Made by a program: the position numbers and the translations under genes | Shown here: piece by piece, positions 363 to 11,662 of the stretch | Layout of the letters: each line of letters opens with the position of its first letter | Position numbering within the stretch: position 1 is the first letter of the stretch | Notes under the pieces: model-generated | Seen by the model: the letters and a program-made list of their open reading frames with translations, nothing else | What the model was told of the DNA's origin: nothing | Databases searched by the model: none | NCBI GenBank assembly: GCA_963805625.1 | Contig: CAWDVE010000013.1 | Location: 320,001 to 384,000, forward strand | DNA: 64,000 nucleotides | DNA from: an uncultured Candidatus Rokubacteria bacterium | GTDB lineage: Bacteria > Methylomirabilota > Methylomirabilia > Rokubacteriales > DASRDR01 | Direction of reading: 5' to 3'

Positions 363-1553
363 GTGTTGGTGACGTCGCGTTTTCCCTCGTGCGTTGTCAT
401 CCTCGTGGCGGGCTTGCTGCTCTGCCGAGTCTCGGCGGCAGCGTCCGAGCCCGTGTTCAGCTCGACGCAGGATCCGGTCGCGGGTTCCCGGATCTTCGGA
501 GAAAAGGGCTGCGCACGCTGCCACGCGATCAACGGTGTCGGTGGTAAAGTCGGTCCGGATCTCGGGAGACTGCCCCGCGCCCGATCGTTCTACGATCTGG
601 CCGCCGCCATGTGGAACCACCTGCCGCGCATGGCCGAACGCATGCGCCAGCTCGGGATTCCCCGCCCCCGCTTGGACGCCCGTGAAACCGGTGATCTGGT
701 CGCGTTCCTGTACACGCTCAACTACTTCGATCCGCCCGGTAATCCCGGGGCCGGGCAGCGGCTCTTCACCGAGAAGAAGTGTGTGGTCTGCCACCAGGTA
801 GGCGGGACCGGAGGGGTGATCGGGCCGAATCTCGACGCGCTGGGACAGTACGGGTCCCCGATCTTCGTCGCCGCGGCCATGTGGAATCACGGCCCGGGCA
901 TGGCCGAGGCGATGCGCGCCAAGGGCGTCGCACGGCCCACGTTCAGAGATCGCGAGCTCGTCGACCTGATCGCGTACATCCGGTCCGCCGGCCCGAAAAC
1001 CGGTGACGAGCCGCTCTACGTCCTGCCGGGCCGAGCCGAGACGGGCCGACGGCTGTTCACCGAGCAGCGCTGCGCCGACTGCCACGGCCCCGCCGGAAAG
1101 GGTGGCGGGATCGGGCCGGACCTGGCGGGGCGTGGCGTGCAGCGCAGCCTCACGGAGTTCGCAACCTCCATGTGGAACAAGGCGCCGGCCATGACAGAGG
1201 CCATGCGCGCGCGGGGTATCCCCGTCCCGCAACTCTCCGCCGAGGGGATGGCCGACATCGTCGCCTACCTCTACGCGGTCGGATACTTCGCGGTCCCCGG
1301 CGATATCCAGCGAGGAGCCCGGATCGCGCGGGACAAAGGGTGCCTCCAGTGCCACACGGTCCGGGCACCGGGAGGGACGGCGCCCACCGATCTCGCGCGC
1401 GCCGCAGGGCTGGAGTCTCCGGCAGCGGTCGTCGCAGCGCTCTGGAACCACAGCTTCGCGGGGGCAGGGCGACCCGGGGCCTGGCCGGAACTCCGTCCGG
1501 CGGAGGTGGCGGACCTGGAGGCTTACCTCCGGAGTCTGGGAGGGACGCGCTAG
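363..1553 (+). CDS. Tetraheme cytochrome c made of four tandem class-I-like domains
   Basis: Signal peptide; CARCH, CVVCH, CADCH, CLQCH, each followed by a (M/L)WN(H/K) motif. Confidence 0.9.
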   Translation: MLVTSRFPSCVVILVAGLLLCRVSAAASEPVFSSTQDPVAGSRIFGEKGCARCHAINGVGGKVGPDLGRLPRARSFYDLAAAMWNHLPRMAERMRQLGIPRPRLDARETGDLVAFLYTLNYFDPPGNPGAGQRLFTEKKCVVCHQVGGTGGVIGPNLDALGQYGSPIFVAAAMWNHGPGMAEAMRAKGVARPTFRDRELVDLIAYIRSAGPKTGDEPLYVLPGRAETGRRLFTEQRCADCHGPAGKGGGIGPDLAGRGVQRSLTEFATSMWNKAPAMTEAMRARGIPVPQLSAEGMADIVAYLYAVGYFAVPGDIQRGARIARDKGCLQCHTVRAPGGTAPTDLARAAGLESPAAVVAALWNHSFAGAGRPGAWPELRPAEVADLEAYLRSLGGTR

Positions 1554-2896
1554 TGCCGCGGCGGCGGTGGCTCCCCCGGCAGATGGTGCCCTGCGCCCTC
1601 ATCTTGGCTGGTATCGGGGCCGCGTCGTTCCAGGCGGTGGCCCAGCAGCCCTCGACGGGCCCGCCGGGTGGAATCGCGCCGGTGGCAGAGAGCTGCGTCA
1701 CCTGCCACCTCGAGATCGGGGACGAGCGCCTGGCGGCGCCCGTCAAGGCGTTCCCGAAGGACATTCATGCCGCCAAGGGCTTCGGGTGCACGGCTTGCCA
1801 CGGAGGCGATCCCAAGGAAACCGGCATGGAGGCGATGGATCCCGCCAAGGGCTACATCGGCAAGCCAGGCCGACGGGAGATCCTCCAAGTCTGTGGCCGC
1901 TGTCACTCGGATGCCCGGTTCATGAAGCGCTACAATCCGAGTCTGCGCGTGGACCAGGTCTCCGAGTACTTCACCTCCGTGCACGGAAGACGGCTCCGGG
2001 AAAGCGGTGACGCCAAGGTCGCCGTCTGCACCAGCTGCCATCCCGCCCACTCGATCGCCCCCCCTTCGGATCCGCAGTCCAGCGTGCATCCGCTCCGCGT
2101 CGCAGAGACCTGTGGGCGCTGCCACGCGGACCCCGCGCACATGGCCGGCTACAAGATCCCGACCGATCAGCTGCAGAAGTACAAGGGCAGCATCCACTGG
2201 GCCACGATGTCCCAGAAGGGCGACCTCTCCGCCCCGACCTGCAACGACTGTCACGGGAACCACGGGGCCGCCCCGCCGGGCGTGTCCTGGGTCGGCAACG
2301 TGTGCGGCCAGTGCCACACGGTGATGGCGGAGCTCTTCGCCAAGAGCCCGCACGCGAAGGCCTTCACCCAGATGGGCGTGCCCGGCTGCGCCGGATGCCA
2401 CGAGAACCACGAGATCAAGGCCGCGAGCGATGCGATGCTGGGCATGGGCGACGGCGCCGTGTGCGCCGGGTGCCACGCCTCTGACGACAAGGGAGGATCG
2501 GCCGCAGTCCGGATGCGGGCGCTCATCGACGGCCTCGCGGCCGAGCATGGGCGGGCGCAGGCGATCCTGTCCCAGGCCGAGCACGCGGGGATGGAAGTGA
2601 GCCAGGCCCAGTTCGACCTCAACGGGGCGAAGGACGCGCTGGTCAAGGCGCGGGCTGCCGTCCATGCGTTCGCGCTGACCGCGGTGCAGAAGGAGGCGGA
2701 GGCCGGGGTGGCGGTGGCGACCAGGGCTCACGCCCGGGGCGTCCGAGCCCTCGAGGAGCTTCGCTTCCGCCGGGTTGGGCTGACCGTCTCCGTGGCGATC
2801 ATCGTGGCGCTGATCGCCGGCCTCGCCCTCAAGATCCGCGAACTGGATCGCCGCGCCGCGCGGCGGGAGTCGCAAGCGAAGGAGGACATGCGATGA
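1553..2896 (+). CDS. Nonaheme cytochrome c (c3-family-like) with C-terminal membrane anchor
   Basis: 9 CxxCH; signal peptide; C-terminal hydrophobic helix; GTG overlapping the upstream stop (ATG 1583 is an alternative start). Confidence 0.9.
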   Translation: MPRRRWLPRQMVPCALILAGIGAASFQAVAQQPSTGPPGGIAPVAESCVTCHLEIGDERLAAPVKAFPKDIHAAKGFGCTACHGGDPKETGMEAMDPAKGYIGKPGRREILQVCGRCHSDARFMKRYNPSLRVDQVSEYFTSVHGRRLRESGDAKVAVCTSCHPAHSIAPPSDPQSSVHPLRVAETCGRCHADPAHMAGYKIPTDQLQKYKGSIHWATMSQKGDLSAPTCNDCHGNHGAAPPGVSWVGNVCGQCHTVMAELFAKSPHAKAFTQMGVPGCAGCHENHEIKAASDAMLGMGDGAVCAGCHASDDKGGSAAVRMRALIDGLAAEHGRAQAILSQAEHAGMEVSQAQFDLNGAKDALVKARAAVHAFALTAVQKEAEAGVAVATRAHARGVRALEELRFRRVGLTVSVAIIVALIAGLALKIRELDRRAARRESQAKEDMR

Positions 2897-3348
2897 CGGA
2901 TGGGGTGCTGGCGGAGGAGCGGAACCGGCGGGGGTTCCTGAACTGGTTCCTGGGCACCAGCGCGGTGGGATTCGCGCTCTCCGTCCTTTATCCGCTGAGC
3001 CGCTACCTCGTTCCCCCGCCGACGGGGGAGTCCAGCGCCGTCAGCGTCACCCTGTCCATCAAGCCGGACGACGTGAAGCCGAACTCGGGGCAGATCTTCA
3101 AATTCGGGAGCCGGCCCGGCCTGCTCGTCCGGACGCCGGCCGGGGAGCTTCGGGCCTTCTCGGCCGTCTGCACCCATCTGAACTGCACCGTCCAGTACCG
3201 GCCGGACCTGAGCCACATCTGGTGCGCCTGTCACAACGGCCACTTCGACCTGAACGGCACGAACATCGCCGGGCCGCCGCCGCGTCCCCTGGAGCCGCTC
3301 GTCGTCAACGCTCGGGGAAACCAGATCGTCGTGACCAAGGGCGCCTGA
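2893..3348 (+). CDS. qcrA: Rieske 2Fe-2S subunit of a Rieske/cytochrome b complex
   Basis: Tat-like NRRGFL; CTHLNC and CACHNG Rieske boxes; GPPPRPL. Confidence 0.93.
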   Translation: MTDGVLAEERNRRGFLNWFLGTSAVGFALSVLYPLSRYLVPPPTGESSAVSVTLSIKPDDVKPNSGQIFKFGSRPGLLVRTPAGELRAFSAVCTHLNCTVQYRPDLSHIWCACHNGHFDLNGTNIAGPPPRPLEPLVVNARGNQIVVTKGA

Positions 3349-3351
3349 GTC

Positions 3352-4449
3352 ATGGCGGCTCCTGGGACGACGCGCGGCCGGCTCTGGCACTGGCTCGACG
3401 CGCGTGTCGGGTTGGCCGACCTCGAGAAGCTCGCGAAGAAGAAAGCGGTGCCGCTGCACCGCCACGCGTTCTGGTACTACTTCGGCGGGATGACGCTCTT
3501 CCTTTTCATGGTCCAGGTTTCGACGGGAATTCTTCTCCTCCTCTACTATCGTCCCAGTGCCGAGGAGGCCTACGAATCCATTCAGTTCCTGATGGCCGAG
3601 GTGCAGTTCGGATGGCTCGTCCGCTCGATCCACGCGTGGGCCGCAAACCTGATGATCTTCGTCCTCTTCGTGCACCTCTTCAGCGTGCTGCTCCTCAAGG
3701 CCTATCGCGCACCGCGAGAGCTGACCTGGGTATCGGGCGTCGTCCTGATGGCGCTGGCGATGGCGTTCGGCTTCACCGGCTACCTCCTCCCCTGGAACGA
3801 ACTGGCCTACTTCGCGACCAAGGTCGGGACCGAGATCACGGGCGCGGTTCCTCTGGTCGGGGCGTTCCTGCTGCGGCTGCTGCGCGGAGGAAGCGAGGTC
3901 ACCGGAGCCACGCTGACGCGCTTCTACGGGATCCACGTGGCGATTCTTCCGGCCGTCACCATGCTGCTCCTCGGCCTGCACCTCTTCCTGGTGCAGAAGC
4001 ACGGGATGAGCGTGCCCCCGAGCATCGAGCGCGAGGGAAAGCCGGCCCGCACCATGCCCTTCATGCCGAACTTCCTGCTCCGCGATCTGGTGGGGTGGCT
4101 CTCGGTCCTGGCGGTTCTGGCGGCGCTCGCCGCCTTCTTCCCTGCCGAGCTGGGCAAGAAGGCCGATCCGTTCGCGTCGGCTCCGGCCGGAATCAAGCCC
4201 GAATGGTACTTCATGTTCATGTTCCAGACGCTCAAGTACCTGCCCGCCACCATCATGAAGATCGAGGGCGAGATCGTCGGGGTGCTCGGCTTCGGACTCG
4301 GCGGGCTGTTCCTCCTTCTCATCCCGTTCCTCGATCGGCGGGCTGATCGAGGAGACCGAACCAGGTTGTTCACGTGGATCGGGCTCGCGATCATCGCGTA
4401 CATGATCGTGCTGACCTATCTGGGCTACACGGCGAGCCCCACCAAGTGA
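3352..4449 (+). CDS. qcrB: Cytochrome b (fused b/subunit IV)
   Basis: [26 protein letters not shown], Qo-site PEWY. Confidence 0.95.
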
Positions 4450-5075
4450 CCTGCCGGACGATCGTCCTGGGAACCGTGCTGGCGGGCGGCGCCGCTCTGG
4501 CACTCGTCTCCGGGGCGGGCGGCGCCTCATCGCCCGGGGACCCGACGCGGGGCCAGGCGGTCTTCGCCGCCAAGCAGTGCGGGAGCTGCCATCTTCCCGG
4601 CGCGCAGGGACCGGGTCTGGGCCCGGCCCTCGAGGTCCTGCGACGGCCGCAGGGCGCGTACGAGCTCTGCGGCCGGCTCTGGAACCACGCCCCAGCGATG
4701 CTCGCCCACCTGGCGGGACGCGGAATCGAGTGGCCGGTGATCGACGCGGCCGAGATGGAGGACCTGATGGCATATCTCGGCGCCGACCCGGCCCGAGACC
4801 CCACGCCGAACCTTCAGGTCGGTCAGGTGACGCTCCTCCGCAAAGGCTGCCTGAAATGCCACAGCCTGAGGGGCGAGGGAGCGCACCTCGCGCCCGAGTT
4901 AGCCCGCTCCCGAGTCGTCGCCGATCCCCCGGCCACATGGGCGGCGCGGATGTGGCGCCACACGCCAATGATGGCGACGAAGGCCCAGGAACTCGGTATT
5001 CTGTACCCAAGATTCGCCGCGCACGAGATGACGCATCTCATCGGCTTCCTGAGAAACATGGCGGCGTTACCCTGA
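4446..5075 (+). CDS. Diheme cytochrome c, paralogous to the domains of 363-1553
   Basis: CGSCH, CLKCH; LWNHAPAM and MWRHTPMM motifs; GTGA overlap with cytochrome b. Confidence 0.85.
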
Positions 5076-5091
5076 GGGGAGGAGCGAAGCG

Positions 5092-5460
5092 ATGTCACAG
5101 TACCGATCCAGTGGTCTGACCCTCGTCGGCGGTCTCTTGCTGGCTGGGTCGCTCGTCGTGCTGGCCGATGCCCAGGTGAAGGCCCCGCCAGACTTCACGT
5201 TCGAGCAAGGAAAGGAGAGTCCCGGGACCGTCAGCTTCAGCCACGACAAGCACAAGGAGTCCGGCGTAGACAAGTGTCAGGCCTGCCACACCAAGATCTT
5301 CAAGATGAAGAAGGGCACGTCCGGGCCCCTCGTGATGGAGAAGATGAAGGCTGGCGAGCAGTGCGGCACCTGCCACAACGCCACGGCAAAGGTGGCCGAC
5401 AAAGTCGTGTTCGGGGTCTCGGACAAGGAGAACTGTGCGAGGTGCCACAAGAAGTCATAG
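5092..5460 (+). CDS. c7-type triheme periplasmic cytochrome
   Basis: Signal peptide; FSHDKH, CQACH, CGTCH, CARCH; GGAGG RBS. Confidence 0.9.
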   Translation: MSQYRSSGLTLVGGLLLAGSLVVLADAQVKAPPDFTFEQGKESPGTVSFSHDKHKESGVDKCQACHTKIFKMKKGTSGPLVMEKMKAGEQCGTCHNATAKVADKVVFGVSDKENCARCHKKS

Positions 5461-5493
5461 CGGCGGAAGTCCGTGCACCATGCCCACCCTCCT

Positions 5494-5524
5494 CCGATCG
5501 CCCCGCCGGTGGCGGGGCGATCGG
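5494..5524. terminator. Perfect 14-bp GC hairpin (mRNA stabiliser or attenuator) after the c7 gene
   Basis: CCGATCGCCCCGCC-GGT-GGCGGGGCGATCGG; no U-tract. Confidence 0.6.
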
Positions 5525-5694
5525 CTCGGCGGCGACGCCACCCCGGTGGTGCCGGAATTTCAGCCGTCCCCCGCGGACAACCGGGTGAGCCCGGGCTATC
5601 GGGATCTTGACGTGCCGGCCACCTGGGACCGCTGGCTCCGACCCCGGAGGCGCCTGCCATCGGGACGGGCCCGACCCGCCAAGAGACACGGCTA

Positions 5695-6627
5695 GTGTCC
5701 GAGACCGTCGCGGCTAACCCGCCGAGCCGGCGTCGCGGGCGCCGCGTGCACGTGGTCCTCATCGTGACCGTCCTCGCGCTGCTGGCGGGAGGCGTCGCCC
5801 TCACCGGGCTCTGGGAGTTCAGCTCGAGCCCCATGTTCTGCAACTCGTGCCACATCATGAAGCCCTACGTGAGCGCCTGGCAGACCTCGAAGCACAACCA
5901 AGTCGCCTGCGTCCAATGCCACTATCCGCCGGGCTTCCGTGACACGATCTGGGTCAAGTACCAAGCGCTCACCCAGGTGGTGAAGTGGGCGACCCACACG
6001 TACAGCTCGAAGCCGTTCGCCGAGGTCGAGAACGGGAGCTGCCTCCGCTCGGGCTGCCACTCGGAGCAGGCTCTCCAAGAAAAGGTCACGTACAAGCACG
6101 GCATCGCCTTCCAGCACACGCCACATCTCACCCAGGGGCGGCGCGGCCTCCAGCTCCGCTGCACGAGCTGTCATACGCAGATGGTGGTGGAGCGGCACAT
6201 CGACATCGCCGATACGACGTGCTTCCTGTGCCACTTCAAGGGCACGAAGGCAGCCCGCGAACTCACCCCGTTCGCCGGCTGTACCGGATGCCATCAGCCG
6301 CCGAAGGGAGACATCCGGATCGGCTCGCTGCGCTTCAACCACGAGGAGGTGCAGCGGCGTGGTGTGGCCTGCCAGAAGTGTCACCTGACCGTGGTGCAAG
6401 GGGACGGGGTGGCCCCCCGGGAACGCTGCTACACCTGTCACAACCAGCCCGAGAAGATCGGGAAGTACGCCGACACCGCGGTGGTCCACCACGTCCACGT
6501 GACGACCCACAACATCGAGTGCACACGGTGCCACACGGAGATCACGCACCGGCTACCGCCTCCCATAGGCCTCCCAGGGGTAGCCGACGGTGGCACGAAC
6601 CGCCTCGAAACGCTGGTGAGTCGATGA
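5695..6627 (+). CDS. NapC/NirT-like membrane-anchored multiheme cytochrome
   Basis: N-terminal TM; FCNSCHIM..Y..W..S.H..V.CVQCH NapC signature; 8 CxxCH plus CLRSGCH. Confidence 0.9.
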   Translation: MSETVAANPPSRRRGRRVHVVLIVTVLALLAGGVALTGLWEFSSSPMFCNSCHIMKPYVSAWQTSKHNQVACVQCHYPPGFRDTIWVKYQALTQVVKWATHTYSSKPFAEVENGSCLRSGCHSEQALQEKVTYKHGIAFQHTPHLTQGRRGLQLRCTSCHTQMVVERHIDIADTTCFLCHFKGTKAARELTPFAGCTGCHQPPKGDIRIGSLRFNHEEVQRRGVACQKCHLTVVQGDGVAPRERCYTCHNQPEKIGKYADTAVVHHVHVTTHNIECTRCHTEITHRLPPPIGLPGVADGGTNRLETLVSR

Positions 6628-7967
6628 GGCGGCTGCTCGTGGCTGTCCTCGCGCTGGGACTCGCAGGGACGGCGCCGACCGGCGGCCTGCGCCCCGCCGT
6701 AGCCCAGGCGCCACCGGCCAAGTCGCCGATGGAGCGCCCGGAGGTGCGGCCACCAGAGCGCCCGCACGGACCGGGAGAGTTGGACTGCCTGTCCTGTCAC
6801 CAGGGCAAGCACCGCGGCGTGCTGAGCATGTACCTGGGGATGGGCGGGCGCGGCACCCCCATGATCCCGAGCCACATGGTCCAGGTCAGGGTAGAGTGCG
6901 TGGCCTGCCACACGGTGCCCAAGGAAGAGGCGACACAGTCGAGCATCGTCGGCCAGACGTTCAGGCCAAGCGAGCGGGCCTGCGTCGACTGTCACGGGGA
7001 GGCATACCGAGGGATGCTCGGACGGTGGAGCACCATCCTGGCCCGAATGCGGGACATCGTGGGGCCCAAGCTATCGACCGCGCGGGAGACGCTCACCGCG
7101 GCGGATCCCAAGCACGCCAGGCTCGCGCGGGCCCGACAGCTCGTGGACGATGCCGAGTTCAACCTTCGCTTCGTCGCGCTCGCCAAGGGAGTGCATAACG
7201 TCTTCTACGCCGCGGACCTCCTGAAGCTTGCCAACGGCTGGGCCGACGAGGCAGCGACCCTGGTGGGAAAGCCGCTGCCGAAGGGCGACGACCTTCTGGT
7301 GCGCGGCGGCTACTGTGCGGTGCTGTGCCATGAGCAGGCGGGCGTCAAGCCCAAGGCGACGGTGACCTTCAGAGGGCAGCAGCTGCCGCATGACCGCCAC
7401 GTGAACGAGCTTGGCGCCACTTGCACCTCGTGCCACTCGGCCGAGACCCACCGGGCCGTGACAGCGACTCCCGCGACGTGCGCCGGCTGTCACCACGCGC
7501 CCGCGAACGAGCGGTGCGAGTCCTGCCACCGGGCCCAGGCTGCGCTCTTCCGCGGACAGGTGCAGGACGCGCCGCTACAGATCGAGCCGGATGTGATGGC
7601 GGCCGCCGTGACCTGCACGGGCTGTCACGACTGGAGCCGGAAGCATTCCCGGCAAGCCGTCGGAGACAAGTGCGTGGAGTGCCATGAGGCATCGTACCGG
7701 GCGCGGCTCGCCGAGTGGACGACCGGCTTCGATCGTGGCACCGCCGACGCGGCGGCCACGCTGCGGCGTGCGGAGTCCGCGCTGGCCGTTGCGCGCCGGG
7801 CCGGCCATCGCTCCGCGGAGGGGGAACGTCTCGTCAAGGAGGCGCAGCAAGCCCTGGCCCTCGTGCGGCGGGCGCGGCCCGTCCACAATGCGCTCGCCGC
7901 CGACGCACTGCTTGACGTGGTGCGGCAGAAGGCCGAGGCGGCCAGGGCGGAGGCCGCCCGCCGCTGA
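6624..7967 (+). CDS. Multiheme cytochrome c (8 CxxCH plus CAVLCH) with helical segments
   Basis: ATGA overlap with the upstream gene; signal peptide MRRLLVAVLALG. Confidence 0.88.
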   Translation: MRRLLVAVLALGLAGTAPTGGLRPAVAQAPPAKSPMERPEVRPPERPHGPGELDCLSCHQGKHRGVLSMYLGMGGRGTPMIPSHMVQVRVECVACHTVPKEEATQSSIVGQTFRPSERACVDCHGEAYRGMLGRWSTILARMRDIVGPKLSTARETLTAADPKHARLARARQLVDDAEFNLRFVALAKGVHNVFYAADLLKLANGWADEAATLVGKPLPKGDDLLVRGGYCAVLCHEQAGVKPKATVTFRGQQLPHDRHVNELGATCTSCHSAETHRAVTATPATCAGCHHAPANERCESCHRAQAALFRGQVQDAPLQIEPDVMAAAVTCTGCHDWSRKHSRQAVGDKCVECHEASYRARLAEWTTGFDRGTADAAATLRRAESALAVARRAGHRSAEGERLVKEAQQALALVRRARPVHNALAADALLDVVRQKAEAARAEAARR

Positions 7968-7989
7968 TGGGCAAGGAGACGGCCCAGAC

Positions 7990-8826
7990 ATGACCCGCGG
8001 TTGGCGGCCGCCTCCGCCCGACCCCGTCCGCCCAGACTGGCTCGTCGCCGGCCTGGCGGCCGTCGGCGTGATCCTGGCCGGCTACCTCACTTGGACGAAA
8101 GCAACGGGCGGGAGCGCTCTCTTCTGCACCGCGGCGGCCGGCTGCGAGGTTGTCCAGGCAAGCCGATACGCGATGCTCCTCGGGATCCCGACGGCGGCGT
8201 GGGGCGCCGCCCTCTACACCGTCGTCGGGGGGCTCGCCCTGGCCGGGCTCACGGCACGTCGTTGGCTGATCGCTTTCCTGCTGGTCGCCGGCGGCATGGG
8301 GTTTGCGGGCTACCTCACCTACCTTGAGCTGTTCGTGATCGCGGCCGTCTGCTGGTACTGCGTGGCCTCGGCGGCGATCACGCTCGCACTCCTCGGATCC
8401 TTGCTCGGCCGATGGCCGCGAGGGCGGCGACGAACCGGGGCCGCCCGTCTGGTCACGCTGGGGGCGGGCGCCGCCGTGGTCGCGGTCGTAGTCGGCCTTT
8501 CGGTGCACGCGCTGACCGCGCCCGGCGGCGCCTACGCCTACCAGGAGGCGCTCGCCCGCCATCTGGCGCAGAGCGGTGCCGTGATGTACGGGGCGTTCTG
8601 GTGACCCGCGTGCAAAGAGCAAAAGGCCCGGTTCGGGCCCGCGGCTGACCTTCTTCCGTACGTCGAGTGCGACCCGCGCGCGCCGAGCGCACAGCCCGAG
8701 CGCTGCAAGCGGGTCGACGTTCGCGGCTACCCGACCTGGGTCCTCAGCGGGCTTCGACACGAGGGCGCGATGACACTCGACGAGCTCGCCCGAGCCTCCG
8801 GATTCGTGTGGCGGGCGCCGGGGTAG
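7990..8826 (+). CDS. VKOR-thioredoxin fusion, probable selenoprotein (Sec at TGA 8602-8604)
   Basis: VKOR loop Cys pair and CWYC; the frame continues past TGA as YGAFW-U-PAC-KEQK..YVEC..C...GYPTW to TAG 8824-8826. Confidence 0.88.
8605..8644 (+). promoter_or_regulatory. Candidate bacterial SECIS element
   Basis: Upper stem GGCCCG-GTT-CGGGCC (8625-8639) with a G-initial loop 26 nt after the UGA; lower pairing CCGCG/CGCGG. Confidence 0.7.
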
Positions 8827-8877: not shown

Positions 8878-10569
8878 CTACCCGTAGGTGAAGGGCTCGT
8901 GGTTCATCCCGTGGCAGAGGAGAAAGCACCGACCGGAGCCCGATCCGTTTGTCTCATACTCCAGGCGACCCTGGTTCTGGGAGGGCTGGACAACCGTCCG
9001 GCCGTCGGGATCGCGCAGCATGAAATTGATCAGGTGGGGGTTCCGCCGGGAGCCGTGGGCGTCGTGGCACACCGCGCAGGAGGCCTGGGCTCGGACGAGG
9101 TGGGCCTGATGAGGGAACTTTCCCGCTTGGTTGGCCAGGAACGCCGCCCGGTTGTGGCACTTGTAGCAGAGCGCATAGGCATCGGGCGCCTCGGGTGATG
9201 GATCGTTGGTGCGGAACTGGCGCTCGAGGATTGGCGCGAACGTGGAGCCGTGCGGACCCCGAGGGCGGTCCGCCCCCACGGCATCGTCGCTGTGACAATC
9301 GGAGCAGGTGACTCGGCTCGCGGCGGTGTAGCCGGCCTGGAAGCCCGAAGCGCCCGGATTCCGCCCGCGGGCGGCCACCGGGTGGAACGAAGCGTTGCCA
9401 GGATCCAGCTCGAGCCGCACGTTACGGACGTTGTCCTGGCGAACCATGCCGCGGGTCGTCTGGTCGCGAAGACCGTGGCAACGGTAGCACACCTCGGCCT
9501 CGCTGGCGGCCTCGTCGACGAGGCTCGCCGACTGCGTCACACCTGCCACCCCACGGAGCGGACCGGGCAGGCCTGGAGGCGCCACCCGCTCCCCGGTGGC
9601 CTCATGCGGGTTGTGACAGTCCGCGCAGGTTGCGTGCCGGGACATCGTCCGCGGGTCCTCGACCGGATCGTGGATCCCGTCCGTGGACGCGACGGGGTGA
9701 GCGCTCGCCTTGGCGATGGACGCCTCGACGTTCTTGCTGGCGAGGTTGCCATTGTGACAGACGAGACAGACGCCGCGCTGGGTCGAACGGGCAAGGAGTC
9801 GCGCAGCCTGCCCGGCGCTATGGGGCCAGTGGCAGTTCTCGCAGGCGTTGGTCGCCACGGTTAGATAGGGCGAGGTCGGCCAGGGGTCGGTGCCCCGGCC
9901 GTTCCACTCCTTGGTCGAGGTCGCATGACTCGACCCTGGCCAGTTCGCGAGCGTGTGGCAGGCGGTGCACAGCCTCCCGCCGCGATCGTCGATGCGGAGG
10001 AAGGCGCGGAAGCGATTCTCGTGCGGATCATGACAGGTCGTGCACTGAACCTGGCGTCGGGCGTCCAGGGCGACGCCCGGTGGAAGCCCAGTGGGATCCG
10101 CCAGCTCCCCGTGACCCGTGCTGAGGGCGCGCCCGTACTCGAACGAGATGGGGTGGTCGTCAGAGAGGTCGGTCCCCAGGTCGGCCCGCCCGCGGAGAGG
10201 GCCCAACGCCGGCCGCCCAGACCGCGGTGCGACTCGGAGGAGCCCGAGTGCGGTCGTGCCGTCATGGCACGACAGACACAGGCGGGAGGCACCGTTGGGC
10301 TGCCTCGGTTTCACCTGCAGGGTGGAGCTCCCATAGAGCCGGTAGGTTACGGGCGGCAGGGCGCGGTTCCACAGGGCGCGCGTCGTCGCGGCCCGGTGCG
10401 GGACATGGCAGAAGATACAGAGCTCCGTCGTCCCGGTGGCGCGCACCGGCCCGCGCCCAGTGGCCGACAGGTTGTGCACCGTGTCCACGATCGCGGCCCG
10501 TACCGCGCCAGGCACGAGGAAGAGAAGTGCGAGCACGATCAAAGCCGGGAGCGTCCCTCTCCTGTCCAC
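8878..10569 (-). CDS. About 12-heme cytochrome c with an N-terminal OmcE-like tetraheme domain
   Basis: 11 CxxCH plus CFLLCH; HNLS..CIFCHVPH..LWNR..CLSCHDG..DLSDDHPI; start approximate. Confidence 0.88.
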   Translation of the reverse strand: MDRRGTLPALIVLALLFLVPGAVRAAIVDTVHNLSATGRGPVRATGTTELCIFCHVPHRAATTRALWNRALPPVTYRLYGSSTLQVKPRQPNGASRLCLSCHDGTTALGLLRVAPRSGRPALGPLRGRADLGTDLSDDHPISFEYGRALSTGHGELADPTGLPPGVALDARRQVQCTTCHDPHENRFRAFLRIDDRGGRLCTACHTLANWPGSSHATSTKEWNGRGTDPWPTSPYLTVATNACENCHWPHSAGQAARLLARSTQRGVCLVCHNGNLASKNVEASIAKASAHPVASTDGIHDPVEDPRTMSRHATCADCHNPHEATGERVAPPGLPGPLRGVAGVTQSASLVDEAASEAEVCYRCHGLRDQTTRGMVRQDNVRNVRLELDPGNASFHPVAARGRNPGASGFQAGYTAASRVTCSDCHSDDAVGADRPRGPHGSTFAPILERQFRTNDPSPEAPDAYALCYKCHNRAAFLANQAGKFPHQAHLVRAQASCAVCHDAHGSRRNPHLINFMLRDPDGRTVVQPSQNQGRLEYETNGSGSGRCFLLCHGMNHEPFTYG

Positions 10570-10591
10570 GGCCAATGGCGAGGCCTCGCCC

Positions 10592-11662
10592 CTAACCACC
10601 AGCCTCCTCCGGTTCGCCTGGGGTCCGCGGCAGGTACTCGAAGACCTGGATGCGGCCGTTGTAGGCATCGGCTACGTAGATGCGGTCCATCGGGTCGATG
10701 AACAGGCCTCCGGGCAGCCAGAACTGCCCACGCCCGGCCCCGGCCTCGCCAAAGGTCAGGAGGAGACTGCCCTGCCGGTCAAACACCTGGACGGCGTCGA
10801 ACAGGGCCTCGACCACGTACACGTGCCCGTCGCTATCGAGAGCCACTCCTTTGGGGCTCGCGAAGTCGCCGGCGGTGTCGCCTTGGCGGCCGAAGTAGCC
10901 GCGCAGCACGCCGTCGGGCCCGAGCGCTTGCACACGGTAGCCCAGCGCGTCCGTCACCCAGAGGGTGCCGTCGGGCGCCAGCGCCAGGTGGGTGGGGTAA
11001 TTGAACTCTCCCGGATCCGTGCCCCGCACACCATAGGCGCCCACGGGACGACCGGCACCGTCGAGCACCCAGATCTGATGGGCCGCACTGTCGGCCACGT
11101 AGAGGCGGTCACGCGCGGCGTCGTAGGCCAGGCCGGCCGGCCGGCGAAAGCGAGGATCCGCGATGACGACCAGGGGCTGTCCGTCCGCCGCGTGGACCGA
11201 CACCACGGCCAGCGCGGAGTCAGCCAGGAATACGTGACCGCTCCGGGGGCCCGCCCCCAAGGCGAGGGCCACCGGCGAGGACAGCGGGCGTCCGCCCACC
11301 TCAGTCACGCGGGTCACCCGCTTGTTCGGTGCGTCCCAGACCCACAGCGCCGGCGCCCCGGGGTCGGCCATGTAGAGAATGCCGTCACGTGCGGCGATGC
11401 CGGTCGGCCGCACCAGCCTACGGCCCTCGGCGCCGGCCACGACGCGCACCGCCCGATCCCAGAGCGATGGCTGAATGCCGAGGTCCTCGGGTGCGGCCAC
11501 GGCGGCCACCCAGCGGATGCGCGGGCGAGCCGGCGGGGCTGGCCACGCCACCGGCCCGCCTCCAGTCTCCTGCGCGGGGTCGGGCGGCCGGGCGGCTCGC
11601 TCGCAGGCGGGCGCGAGCAGGGTCACCCCCGCCAGGAGGGCCAGGACTAGGCGTCTGGACAT
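10592..11662 (-). CDS. NHL-repeat beta-propeller lipoprotein
   Basis: Lipobox-like LAPAC; repeated F..P.G.A...G..YV.D..N.R.QVF units. Confidence 0.9.
   Translation of the reverse strand: MSRRLVLALLAGVTLLAPACERAARPPDPAQETGGGPVAWPAPPARPRIRWVAAVAAPEDLGIQPSLWDRAVRVVAGAEGRRLVRPTGIAARDGILYMADPGAPALWVWDAPNKRVTRVTEVGGRPLSSPVALALGAGPRSGHVFLADSALAVVSVHAADGQPLVVIADPRFRRPAGLAYDAARDRLYVADSAAHQIWVLDGAGRPVGAYGVRGTDPGEFNYPTHLALAPDGTLWVTDALGYRVQALGPDGVLRGYFGRQGDTAGDFASPKGVALDSDGHVYVVEALFDAVQVFDRQGSLLLTFGEAGAGRGQFWLPGGLFIDPMDRIYVADAYNGRIQVFEYLPRTPGEPEEAGG

Follow-up and report, generated by a model that had tools for sequence, protein, structure and literature searches.

The window considered here is a stretch of 64,000 nucleotides (nt) from the genome of an uncultured Candidatus Rokubacteria bacterium (phylum Methylomirabilota), and the subject of this article is a gene at positions 7990..8826 of its forward strand that joins a membrane-embedded VKOR domain to a thioredoxin (Trx)-like domain. 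The first cysteine position of the Trx redox motif is occupied by an in-frame TGA codon at 8602-8604, which is very probably read as selenocysteine (Sec), making this region one full-length VKOR-Trx gene. The gene is taken to encode the Sec version of an enzyme already known, with a decoding mechanism that is itself established in bacteria, and its family is mis-annotated as truncated in public data. A preliminary description of the window had pointed to a hidden VKOR-Trx selenoprotein with a UxxC active site, and that observation is confirmed.

The gene and its protein product

The frame from 7990 to 8826 has a single interruption, the TGA at 8602-8604, which is preceded by 204 codons and followed by 73 more. 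The list of open reading frames (ORFs) ends the ORF (7684..8604) at this codon; both the 73-codon continuation and the peptide strings quoted in the preliminary description proved exact. The read-through product is a protein of 278 amino acids (aa), ...VMYGAFW-U-PACKEQKARFG...LPYVEC...GYPTW...LDELARASG, and its start at ATG 7990 is backed by two database homologues (P0002 and P0003) that share the N-terminus MTRGWRPP. The gene has the following features, all on the forward strand.

7973..7978, forward strand: AAGGAG, a ribosome-binding-like hexamer 11 nt 5' of ATG 7990, read from the sequence and of putative function.
7990..8826, forward strand: VKOR-Trx gene, 278 codons including U205, with stop codon TAG at 8824-8826.
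8038..8394, forward strand: VKOR domain, the four-helix membrane core (residues 17-135; PF07884, E 5.7e-24, 85.2 bits against a cut-off of 27.5).
8125..8145, forward strand: VKOR loop cysteine pair C46...C52, aligning with the loop cysteines of Synechococcus VKOR.
8350..8361, forward strand: membrane CxxC, C121-W-Y-C124, beside the quinone site, aligning to CMYC of the solved Synechococcus protein.
8548..8808, forward strand: thioredoxin-like domain, residues about 187-273 (match to PDB 3KP8, E 1.2e-24; Foldseek TMt 0.89).
8602..8604, forward strand: TGA codon in frame, encoding the predicted selenocysteine U205 with which the U-P-A-C redox motif (8602-8613) begins.
8668..8706, forward strand: second cysteine pair of the Trx-like domain, C227 and C239, a putative structural disulfide.

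The identity of the protein is established by comparison with the VKOR-Trx enzyme of Synechococcus sp., which has been solved in several forms (3KP9, 4NV2, 4NV5, and 4NV6, with the Trx domain alone as 3KP8). Residues 18-272 match these four full entries with an E value of 2.8e-43, and in the alignment the TGA codon falls on the first Cys of the Synechococcus W-C-P-H-C motif, which bears out the position originally proposed for it. An AlphaFold2 model based on an alignment of 34 sequences has a mean predicted local distance difference test score of 90.6 and consists of the four-helix core, a long fifth helix (residues 144-176), and a Trx fold. Searched with Foldseek, the model ranks five Synechococcus entries first, with TM scores of 0.70-0.77 over 266-269 columns and 36% identity. 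Among the 34 aligned sequences C46, C121, C124, position 205, C208, C227, and C239 are invariant, and C52 is at least 90% conserved.

The two proteins are alike in architecture from end to end: the four-helix core carries a loop Cys pair and a membrane CxxC, a fifth helix follows, and the C-terminal part is a Trx-like domain in which a W-C-P-x-C-type motif is accompanied by a second Cys pair. The protein encoded here has every sequence feature of the solved enzyme except the codon at position 205. It differs in having TGA (predicted Sec) for the first Cys, U-P-A-C rather than C-P-H-C, and a conserved hairpin after the TGA; the host, unlike Synechococcus, is a non-photosynthetic, GC-rich bacterium of soil or groundwater type. 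A Pfam scan of the full protein at E <= 0.01 returned PF07884 alone, with no domain of the CcdA/DsbD or Redoxin/AhpC-TSA type such as would mark a thiol-reducing protein of cytochrome c maturation (CcdA/DsbD or ResA/CcmG). In NCBIfam, the Trx tail matched no family, and for the full-length protein the only matches were to generic VKOR models, with scores under the cut-offs.

Conservation of the TGA codon and of the tail

The distribution of the TGA was followed in protein databases and in genomes. Among the best 120 matches in a collection of 5.8 billion proteins, 58 stop precisely at YGA[F/Y]W, their last residue being the Trp that precedes the TGA codon, comprising 57 of the 58 matches shorter than 235 aa together with P0104. 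Their identity ranges from 56% to 97%, and they are named as "VKOR family" or "uncharacterized membrane" proteins, so the expectation that standard annotation would truncate the gene is borne out. The other 62 of these best matches carry CPHC, CPAC, CPVC, CAAC, CSAC, or CPRC at the TGA site. One database homologue is labelled Methylomirabilota.

The comparative genomes were 60 relatives together with that of the window (61 in all) and then 251 genomes of the phylum. TGA forms came from the genome search; a scan of contigs with a pattern back-translated with Cys codons gave only Cys forms and distant relatives. Two genomes flagged as unpublished (G038 and G094) enter the tallies only, one locus of G038 having been set aside, and no claim of a TGA form rests on either. 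The first set yielded 13 loci with one TGA inside the match and six Cys forms. In the 251 genomes, 49 matches were flagged with a TGA, and reading of the DNA placed the TGA at the U205 codon in 48 loci from 47 genomes, at 49-68% identity to the query; the TGA of the G194 locus sits off this codon, where the locus reads Cys. The TGA forms are spread over five families of the class (f1, f2, f5, f8, and f10). G105 has two copies, and G222 reads F-T-U-P-V-C. Aligned at the same site are 27 genomic Cys forms, which use TGC or TGT, as would be looked for in homologues of a true selenoprotein. The motif is U-P-A-C in 45 of 47 Sec-form loci and C-P-H-C in 20 of the 27 Cys forms, a shift that suggests a re-tuning of the redox site.

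Substitution patterns on the two sides of the TGA are the same. Downstream of it, pairwise differences at codon positions 1/2/3 are 0.293/0.253/0.451 in 45 TGA forms, compared with 0.323/0.278/0.480 over the 180 codons upstream in the same forms; over the 50 codons after the final stop (44 sequences) they are 0.686/0.683/0.730. By this measure, the tail downstream of the TGA is under coding selection and hence translated. Between the TGA and the partner Cys of the redox motif there is no in-frame ATG, GTG, or TTG, so a Trx domain with its redox motif cannot be made separately. A protein tree of 74 rows (43 Sec, 27 Cys, and four outgroup rows, with five partial rows, L139, L140, L081, L122, and L072, left out) has an open backbone; on the maximum-likelihood tree the Sec label changes four times, of which supported branches force only one. 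The recurrence of the TGA at the U205 codon marks it, on these alignments, as conserved and not a sequence error. With 48 loci and a tail under coding selection, a TGA unique to this strain and followed by decaying sequence, which the preliminary description had named among the outcomes that would speak against it, is not borne out.

Three further observations concern individual loci. L083 (G058:C71:10976-13599) is a lone remnant of the Trx tail (…EQKTRFGPAAKLLPYVECD…YPTW…) that has neither redox motif nor VKOR domain, and is probably a decayed copy of a Sec-type gene. The two copies in G105 are L113 (contig C365) and L139 (contig C371, 2 kb); the second, which has a C-C mismatch in the hairpin described below, could be a paralogue, the product of a strain mixture, or a decaying gene. 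Public records titled 'Candidatus Binatia' and 'Candidatus Dormiibacterota' contain a gene identical to loci in genomes of the window's phylum (L018/L142 and L019/L138), and their titles disagree with the phylum grouping obtained from the genome search.

A SECIS-like hairpin behind the TGA

Bacterial Sec insertion is exemplified by SelB-dependent recoding in fdhF of Escherichia coli, where the selenocysteine insertion sequence (SECIS) is a stem-loop within the coding region shortly past the UGA, with a loop that starts with G and then U. The VKOR-Trx gene has a comparable element, and the feature that lies convergent to it is given alongside.

8625..8639, forward strand: SECIS-like hairpin with a 6-bp stem and GUU loop (GGCCCG 8625-8630, GTT 8631-8633, CGGGCC 8634-8639).
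8878..10668, reverse strand: convergent multiheme cytochrome gene (Pfam Paired_CXXCH_1, E 1.2e-32, and an MtrC/MtrF-like domain).

The hairpin begins 20 nt past the TGA and its loop 26 nt past the UGA, which falls inside the range of 16-37 nt that bSECISearch uses for the SECIS loop; the claim of bacterial SECIS spacing therefore stands, and the element is kept in TGA forms only. It resembles the fdhF SECIS in lying inside the ORF past the UGA with a loop starting G, U, and differs from it in having a very short, all-GC 6-bp stem, a 3-nt loop, and no bulged U.

Conservation of the hairpin is at the level of nucleotides. In the first set of genomes the sequence AAGGCCCGGTTCGGG(C/T)C is common to all 13 TGA forms and is found in none of the six Cys forms. 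Codons +7 to +11 (AAG GCC CGG TTC GGG) are fixed in 46-47 of 47 TGA forms, with an entropy of 0-0.15 bit, and the conserved Ala and Pro codons that flank the hairpin vary by 0.7-1.4 bit in the same forms. The 27 Cys forms use mixed codons at the hairpin positions; Gly, for instance, is encoded by GGC in 19, GGT in three, GGA in three, and GGG in two. RNAalifold applied to 48 distinct TGA-form sequences recovers the hairpin at nt 24-29/33-38 counted from the U of UGA, with the GUU loop, and its six pairs read in turn G-C in 48; G-C in 35 and G-U in 13; C-G in 47 and C-C in one; C-G in 48; C-G in 48; and G-C in 47 and A-C in one. The same program gives no consensus hairpin at that position in the 27 Cys forms, and none appears in six of six folded singly. 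The 13-mer of the hairpin has three copies in the 7.27-Mb genome, only this one standing behind a TGA. Conservation at the RNA level, exclusive linkage to the TGA, and position together make the case for a candidate SECIS.

The same segment has a second appearance. Viewed on the minus strand, from 8640 to 8624, the hairpin is terminator-like in a consensus scan (7-bp stem, T-rich tail), and the convergent cytochrome gene ends about 240 nt short of it. A terminator of that gene, next to a TGA that is a true stop or an error and a tail that is a decaying remnant, would account for this flag, and gene callers do stop at the TGA. Such an account is nevertheless scarcely credible in view of a TGA that recurs at the same codon in 48 loci, a tail that is under coding selection and folds as a Trx domain matching 3KP8, and a hairpin that accompanies the TGA and nothing else, whatever the neighbouring genes; in G054 the downstream multiheme cytochrome ORF is on the gene's own strand. 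The terminator reading of the hairpin was rejected on these grounds.

The selenocysteine machinery of the genome

The genome (28 contigs, 7.27 Mb, 99.91% complete, 6.26% contamination) contains selA (505.7 bits), adjoined by a tRNA with anticodon tca that ARAGORN types as SeC and that is the only tca tRNA found. Its selD (G000:C10:162221-163141, L011; 395.4 bits) has an in-frame TGA of its own, in the motif SHGAG-U-ACK, followed 12 nt on by an 8-bp GC-rich hairpin; to judge from these features it is a Sec-type SelD and a second selenoprotein gene of the genome. The check for the four sel genes turned up selA, the tRNA for Sec, and selD, and also selB, which is split by a 1-nt deletion considered in the next section. 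Of 61 related genomes, 53 have a selA match over the cut-off, and among the 13 with a TGA form the match is a strong one in 11. Co-occurrence with selA was dropped as a discriminating test because of this general presence.

Cys-inserting selC-like tRNAs have been described, and the UGA might be read through not as Sec but as Cys, through a SelB-dependent tRNA with a UCA anticodon, or by near-cognate suppression. Homologues do have Cys at this site. The sole tca tRNA is, however, typed SeC and stands beside selA, both selA and selD are present, and Sec is the simplest reading, so that decoding as anything else appears extremely improbable.

Points that weigh against selenocysteine insertion

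Several results count against the interpretation of the TGA as a Sec codon supported by the hairpin, and the most direct concerns selB. This gene follows selA immediately and is matched as two segments whose frames differ, the switch being caused by a 1-nt deletion in a seven-C/five-G run (G000:C21 about 224,970-225,000, L003). If the deletion were real, there would be no Sec insertion in this strain, which would yield only a 204-aa five-helix VKOR without Trx, while its relatives still made the selenoprotein. One more base and a continuous selB frame at this site in five of five same-genus genomes are compatible with such a loss. The lesion, however, is in a C/G run that is a typical site of consensus errors, both halves of selB are otherwise open, and neither the Sec codon-containing selD nor the VKOR tail is decayed. 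An assembly consensus error is probable, and the likelier since other few-contig assemblies of the group (G050 and G014) have split selA matches too; a genuine loss of selB is very unlikely.

Further points on this side are that no selA match over the cut-off was found in two of the 13 TGA-form genomes, G024 (89% complete) and G032 (93% complete), and that 12 of 14 same-genus genomes gave no match to the VKOR-Trx protein, and 12 of 14 likewise none to the VKOR family. An indispensable housekeeping role is unlikely for this last reason. As regards the hairpin, there are no double compensatory changes, only the alternation of G-C and G-U at one pair and two single mismatches, so that pairing is not proven by covariation. 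An 81-nt stretch folded alone has a z-score of 0.29, a stability equalled by 123 of 200 shuffles; the hairpin is consequently supported by comparison between sequences rather than by thermodynamics, the single sequence folding no more stably than its shuffles. Rfam at gathering thresholds gives no match in the window.

Relation to known selenoproteins and significance

The oxidising power for making disulfide bonds enters through VKOR and DsbB enzymes. A relay residue that contains selenium in nature would offer a ready-made experiment on what selenium does in membrane-linked thiol-disulfide exchange, and a Sec VKOR-Trx would add a family to the bacterial selenoproteome. The annotation of the closest homologues has lost the Trx domain in about half of cases (58 of the best 120).

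The bacterial UxxC selenoproteins of the Trx fold catalogued in the main text of a 2026 selenoproteome review are the DsbA-like (PF01323), DsbG-like (NF041057), and thiol:disulfide interchange (PF13098) types (PMC13188914). These share with the present protein a Sec for the first Cys of CxxC, a secreted Trx-fold oxidoreductase, and a UGA with a hairpin inside the ORF; they are soluble or lipid-anchored single domains, whereas the Trx domain of the present protein is joined to a quinone-linked membrane reoxidase of its own. The Trx tail meets no model of the catalogued DsbA-like or DsbG-like UxxC families (e.g., NF041057 and PF01323), and NCBIfam holds no model for a Sec VKOR-Trx family. Five-helix VKOR homologues that lack a Trx domain are described for actinobacteria in a 2015 VKOR phylogeny, where they are the normal full-length product and act with a separate DsbA-like partner (PMC4555120). 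The 204-aa product predicted from termination at the UGA has the same architecture, but would here be a by-product.

In the literature, no report was found of a Sec-containing VKOR, nor of a Sec-VKOR in Rokubacteria or Methylomirabilota; the family may be listed by Deng et al. (2026) or by Haft and Tolstoy (2025). Neither 'VKOR' nor 'vitamin K' nor 'epoxide' appears in the main text of the selenoproteome reviews of 2026 and 2022 (PMC13188914; PMC9312934) or in the main text and four supplements of the deep-Sep paper (PMC12013277), and 'selen' is absent from the 2015 VKOR phylogeny (PMC4555120). The main text of the 2026 review describes a Methylomirabilota metagenome-assembled genome with 63 predicted selenoprotein genes and presents the phylum as one with very large selenoproteomes (PMC13188914), and correct calling of such genes therefore matters for the metabolic reconstruction of uncultured soil and groundwater bacteria.

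Proposed function and genomic context

The favoured role is that of a general DsbA/DsbB-like periplasmic thiol oxidase, which would often, though not always, be linked to respiratory cytochrome clusters. The generality of the role is suggested by the lack of any DsbB match, and of a second VKOR match, in this 99.91%-complete genome. The reading frame, the identity of the domains, the conserved TGA, tail, and hairpin, and the presence of selA, selC, and selD are shown by the sequences, whereas actual insertion of Sec, the way the electrons flow, the choice of substrates, and the DsbA/DsbB-like role are inferred. By homology with the solved Synechococcus enzyme, the reaction may be pictured as follows. 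Sec205, the exposed first residue of the Trx motif, would exchange with thiols of periplasmic substrates to yield disulfides; mixed bonds, whether to substrates or to the loop cysteines of the VKOR domain, would form at this position. From the Trx motif the electrons would move to C46/C52, on to C121xxC124, and finally to the membrane quinone. Selenium at a position that both attacks and leaves would, by general selenol chemistry, speed both exchange steps by way of a selenylsulfide.

The VKOR-Trx gene follows a cluster of electron-transport genes, identified by Pfam matches.

363..7967, forward strand: co-directional cluster upstream of the VKOR-Trx gene, ending 22 nt before its start.
Gene order in the cluster, forward strand: c-type cytochrome, multiheme cytochrome, Rieske protein (2893-3348), cytochrome b (3352-4449), then cytochrome c.
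3' part of the cluster, forward strand: c7-type cytochrome, NapC/NirT-type protein, and a further multiheme cytochrome.

The preliminary description was right that the gene closes a multiheme cytochrome operon. Gene order is kept across the whole cluster in G019 and across part of it in G028 and G031, and in G028 the Rieske-cytochrome b pair directly precedes the VKOR-Trx gene. With wide flanks, ORFs with at least three CxxCH motifs flank four of ten relatives' TGA loci and none of six Cys loci, in addition to the window's own locus; the remaining six of the ten have unrelated neighbours (VIT1, rhodanese, glyoxalase, peptidase, and ABC transport). No neighbouring gene is universal to TGA loci, and co-inheritance within the family is inconsistent, G020 and G017 having the adjacent multiheme cytochrome and no VKOR match. 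The cytochrome/Rieske context is real but not universal.

This bears on the suggestion, also made at the outset, that the enzyme acts on apo-cytochrome thiols. Enzymes of the VKOR type are thiol oxidants, and heme attachment needs reduced CxxCH thiols. With cytochromes at only four of ten relatives' TGA loci and at the window's own, the context is not universal, and the apo-cytochrome role is for that reason unsupported.

A related idea is that the protein serves specifically in assembling the Rieske/cytochrome b and multiheme cytochrome complex encoded next to it, for example by making the Rieske disulfide or by acting on cytochrome thiols, and is no general disulfide oxidase. Its place as the last gene of the cluster, the synteny in G019 and the arrangement in G028, and the difference between TGA and Cys loci in flanking CxxCH-rich ORFs all fit such a role, as does the four-cysteine pattern CTHLNC...CACH of the window's Rieske protein, which would include a putative disulfide pair. 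The unrelated neighbours at six of ten TGA loci and the adjacent cytochromes of G020 and G017 that have no VKOR partner do not fit it, and the numbers are small and drawn from related genomes that are not independent samples. A dedicated assembly role is accordingly rather doubtful beside the general thiol oxidase favoured here.

A distinctly unlikely, though more far-reaching, scheme would make the UGA a selenium-dependent switch between a VKOR-Trx(Sec) oxidase and a five-helix VKOR, with the Sec form recruited in some lineages as a maturation factor for Rieske/cytochrome b. When selenium is available, the product would be a VKOR-Trx(Sec) oxidase that is complete in itself and relays rapidly through a selenylsulfide; when it is not, termination would leave a five-helix VKOR on its own, like that of actinobacteria. 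The lineages with such a recruitment would include the present one, and in them the Sec form would be a dedicated thiol-oxidising factor of the Rieske/cytochrome b and multiheme cytochrome module. If true, no selenoenzyme before this one would have been coupled directly to the membrane quinone pool for making disulfides.

Some minor observations concern the surrounding genes. The Rieske/cytochrome b pair of the cluster at 363-7967 stands among mono-, tetra-, and multiheme c-type cytochromes and forms with them a bc-like respiratory module. Elsewhere, rhodanese multi-domain genes lie directly downstream of the TGA forms in G039 and G041 (L095 and L096), and genes for VIT1-family iron transporters lie upstream of those in G056 and G053 (L089 and L094). 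Downstream of the VKOR-Trx gene in the window and convergent with it, the reverse strand carries at 10592-11662 a gene for an NHL-repeat beta-propeller protein. The multiheme cytochrome ORF at 5985-7967 has homologues with one TGA inside the match (G019:C2:301616-303550 and G020:C78:2257-4239). The first 640 nt of this ORF (window 5985-6627) overlap the NapC-like ORF at 5695-6627 in another frame, and the TGA of the homologues is probably part of a falsely extended N-terminus and not the sign of a further selenoprotein.

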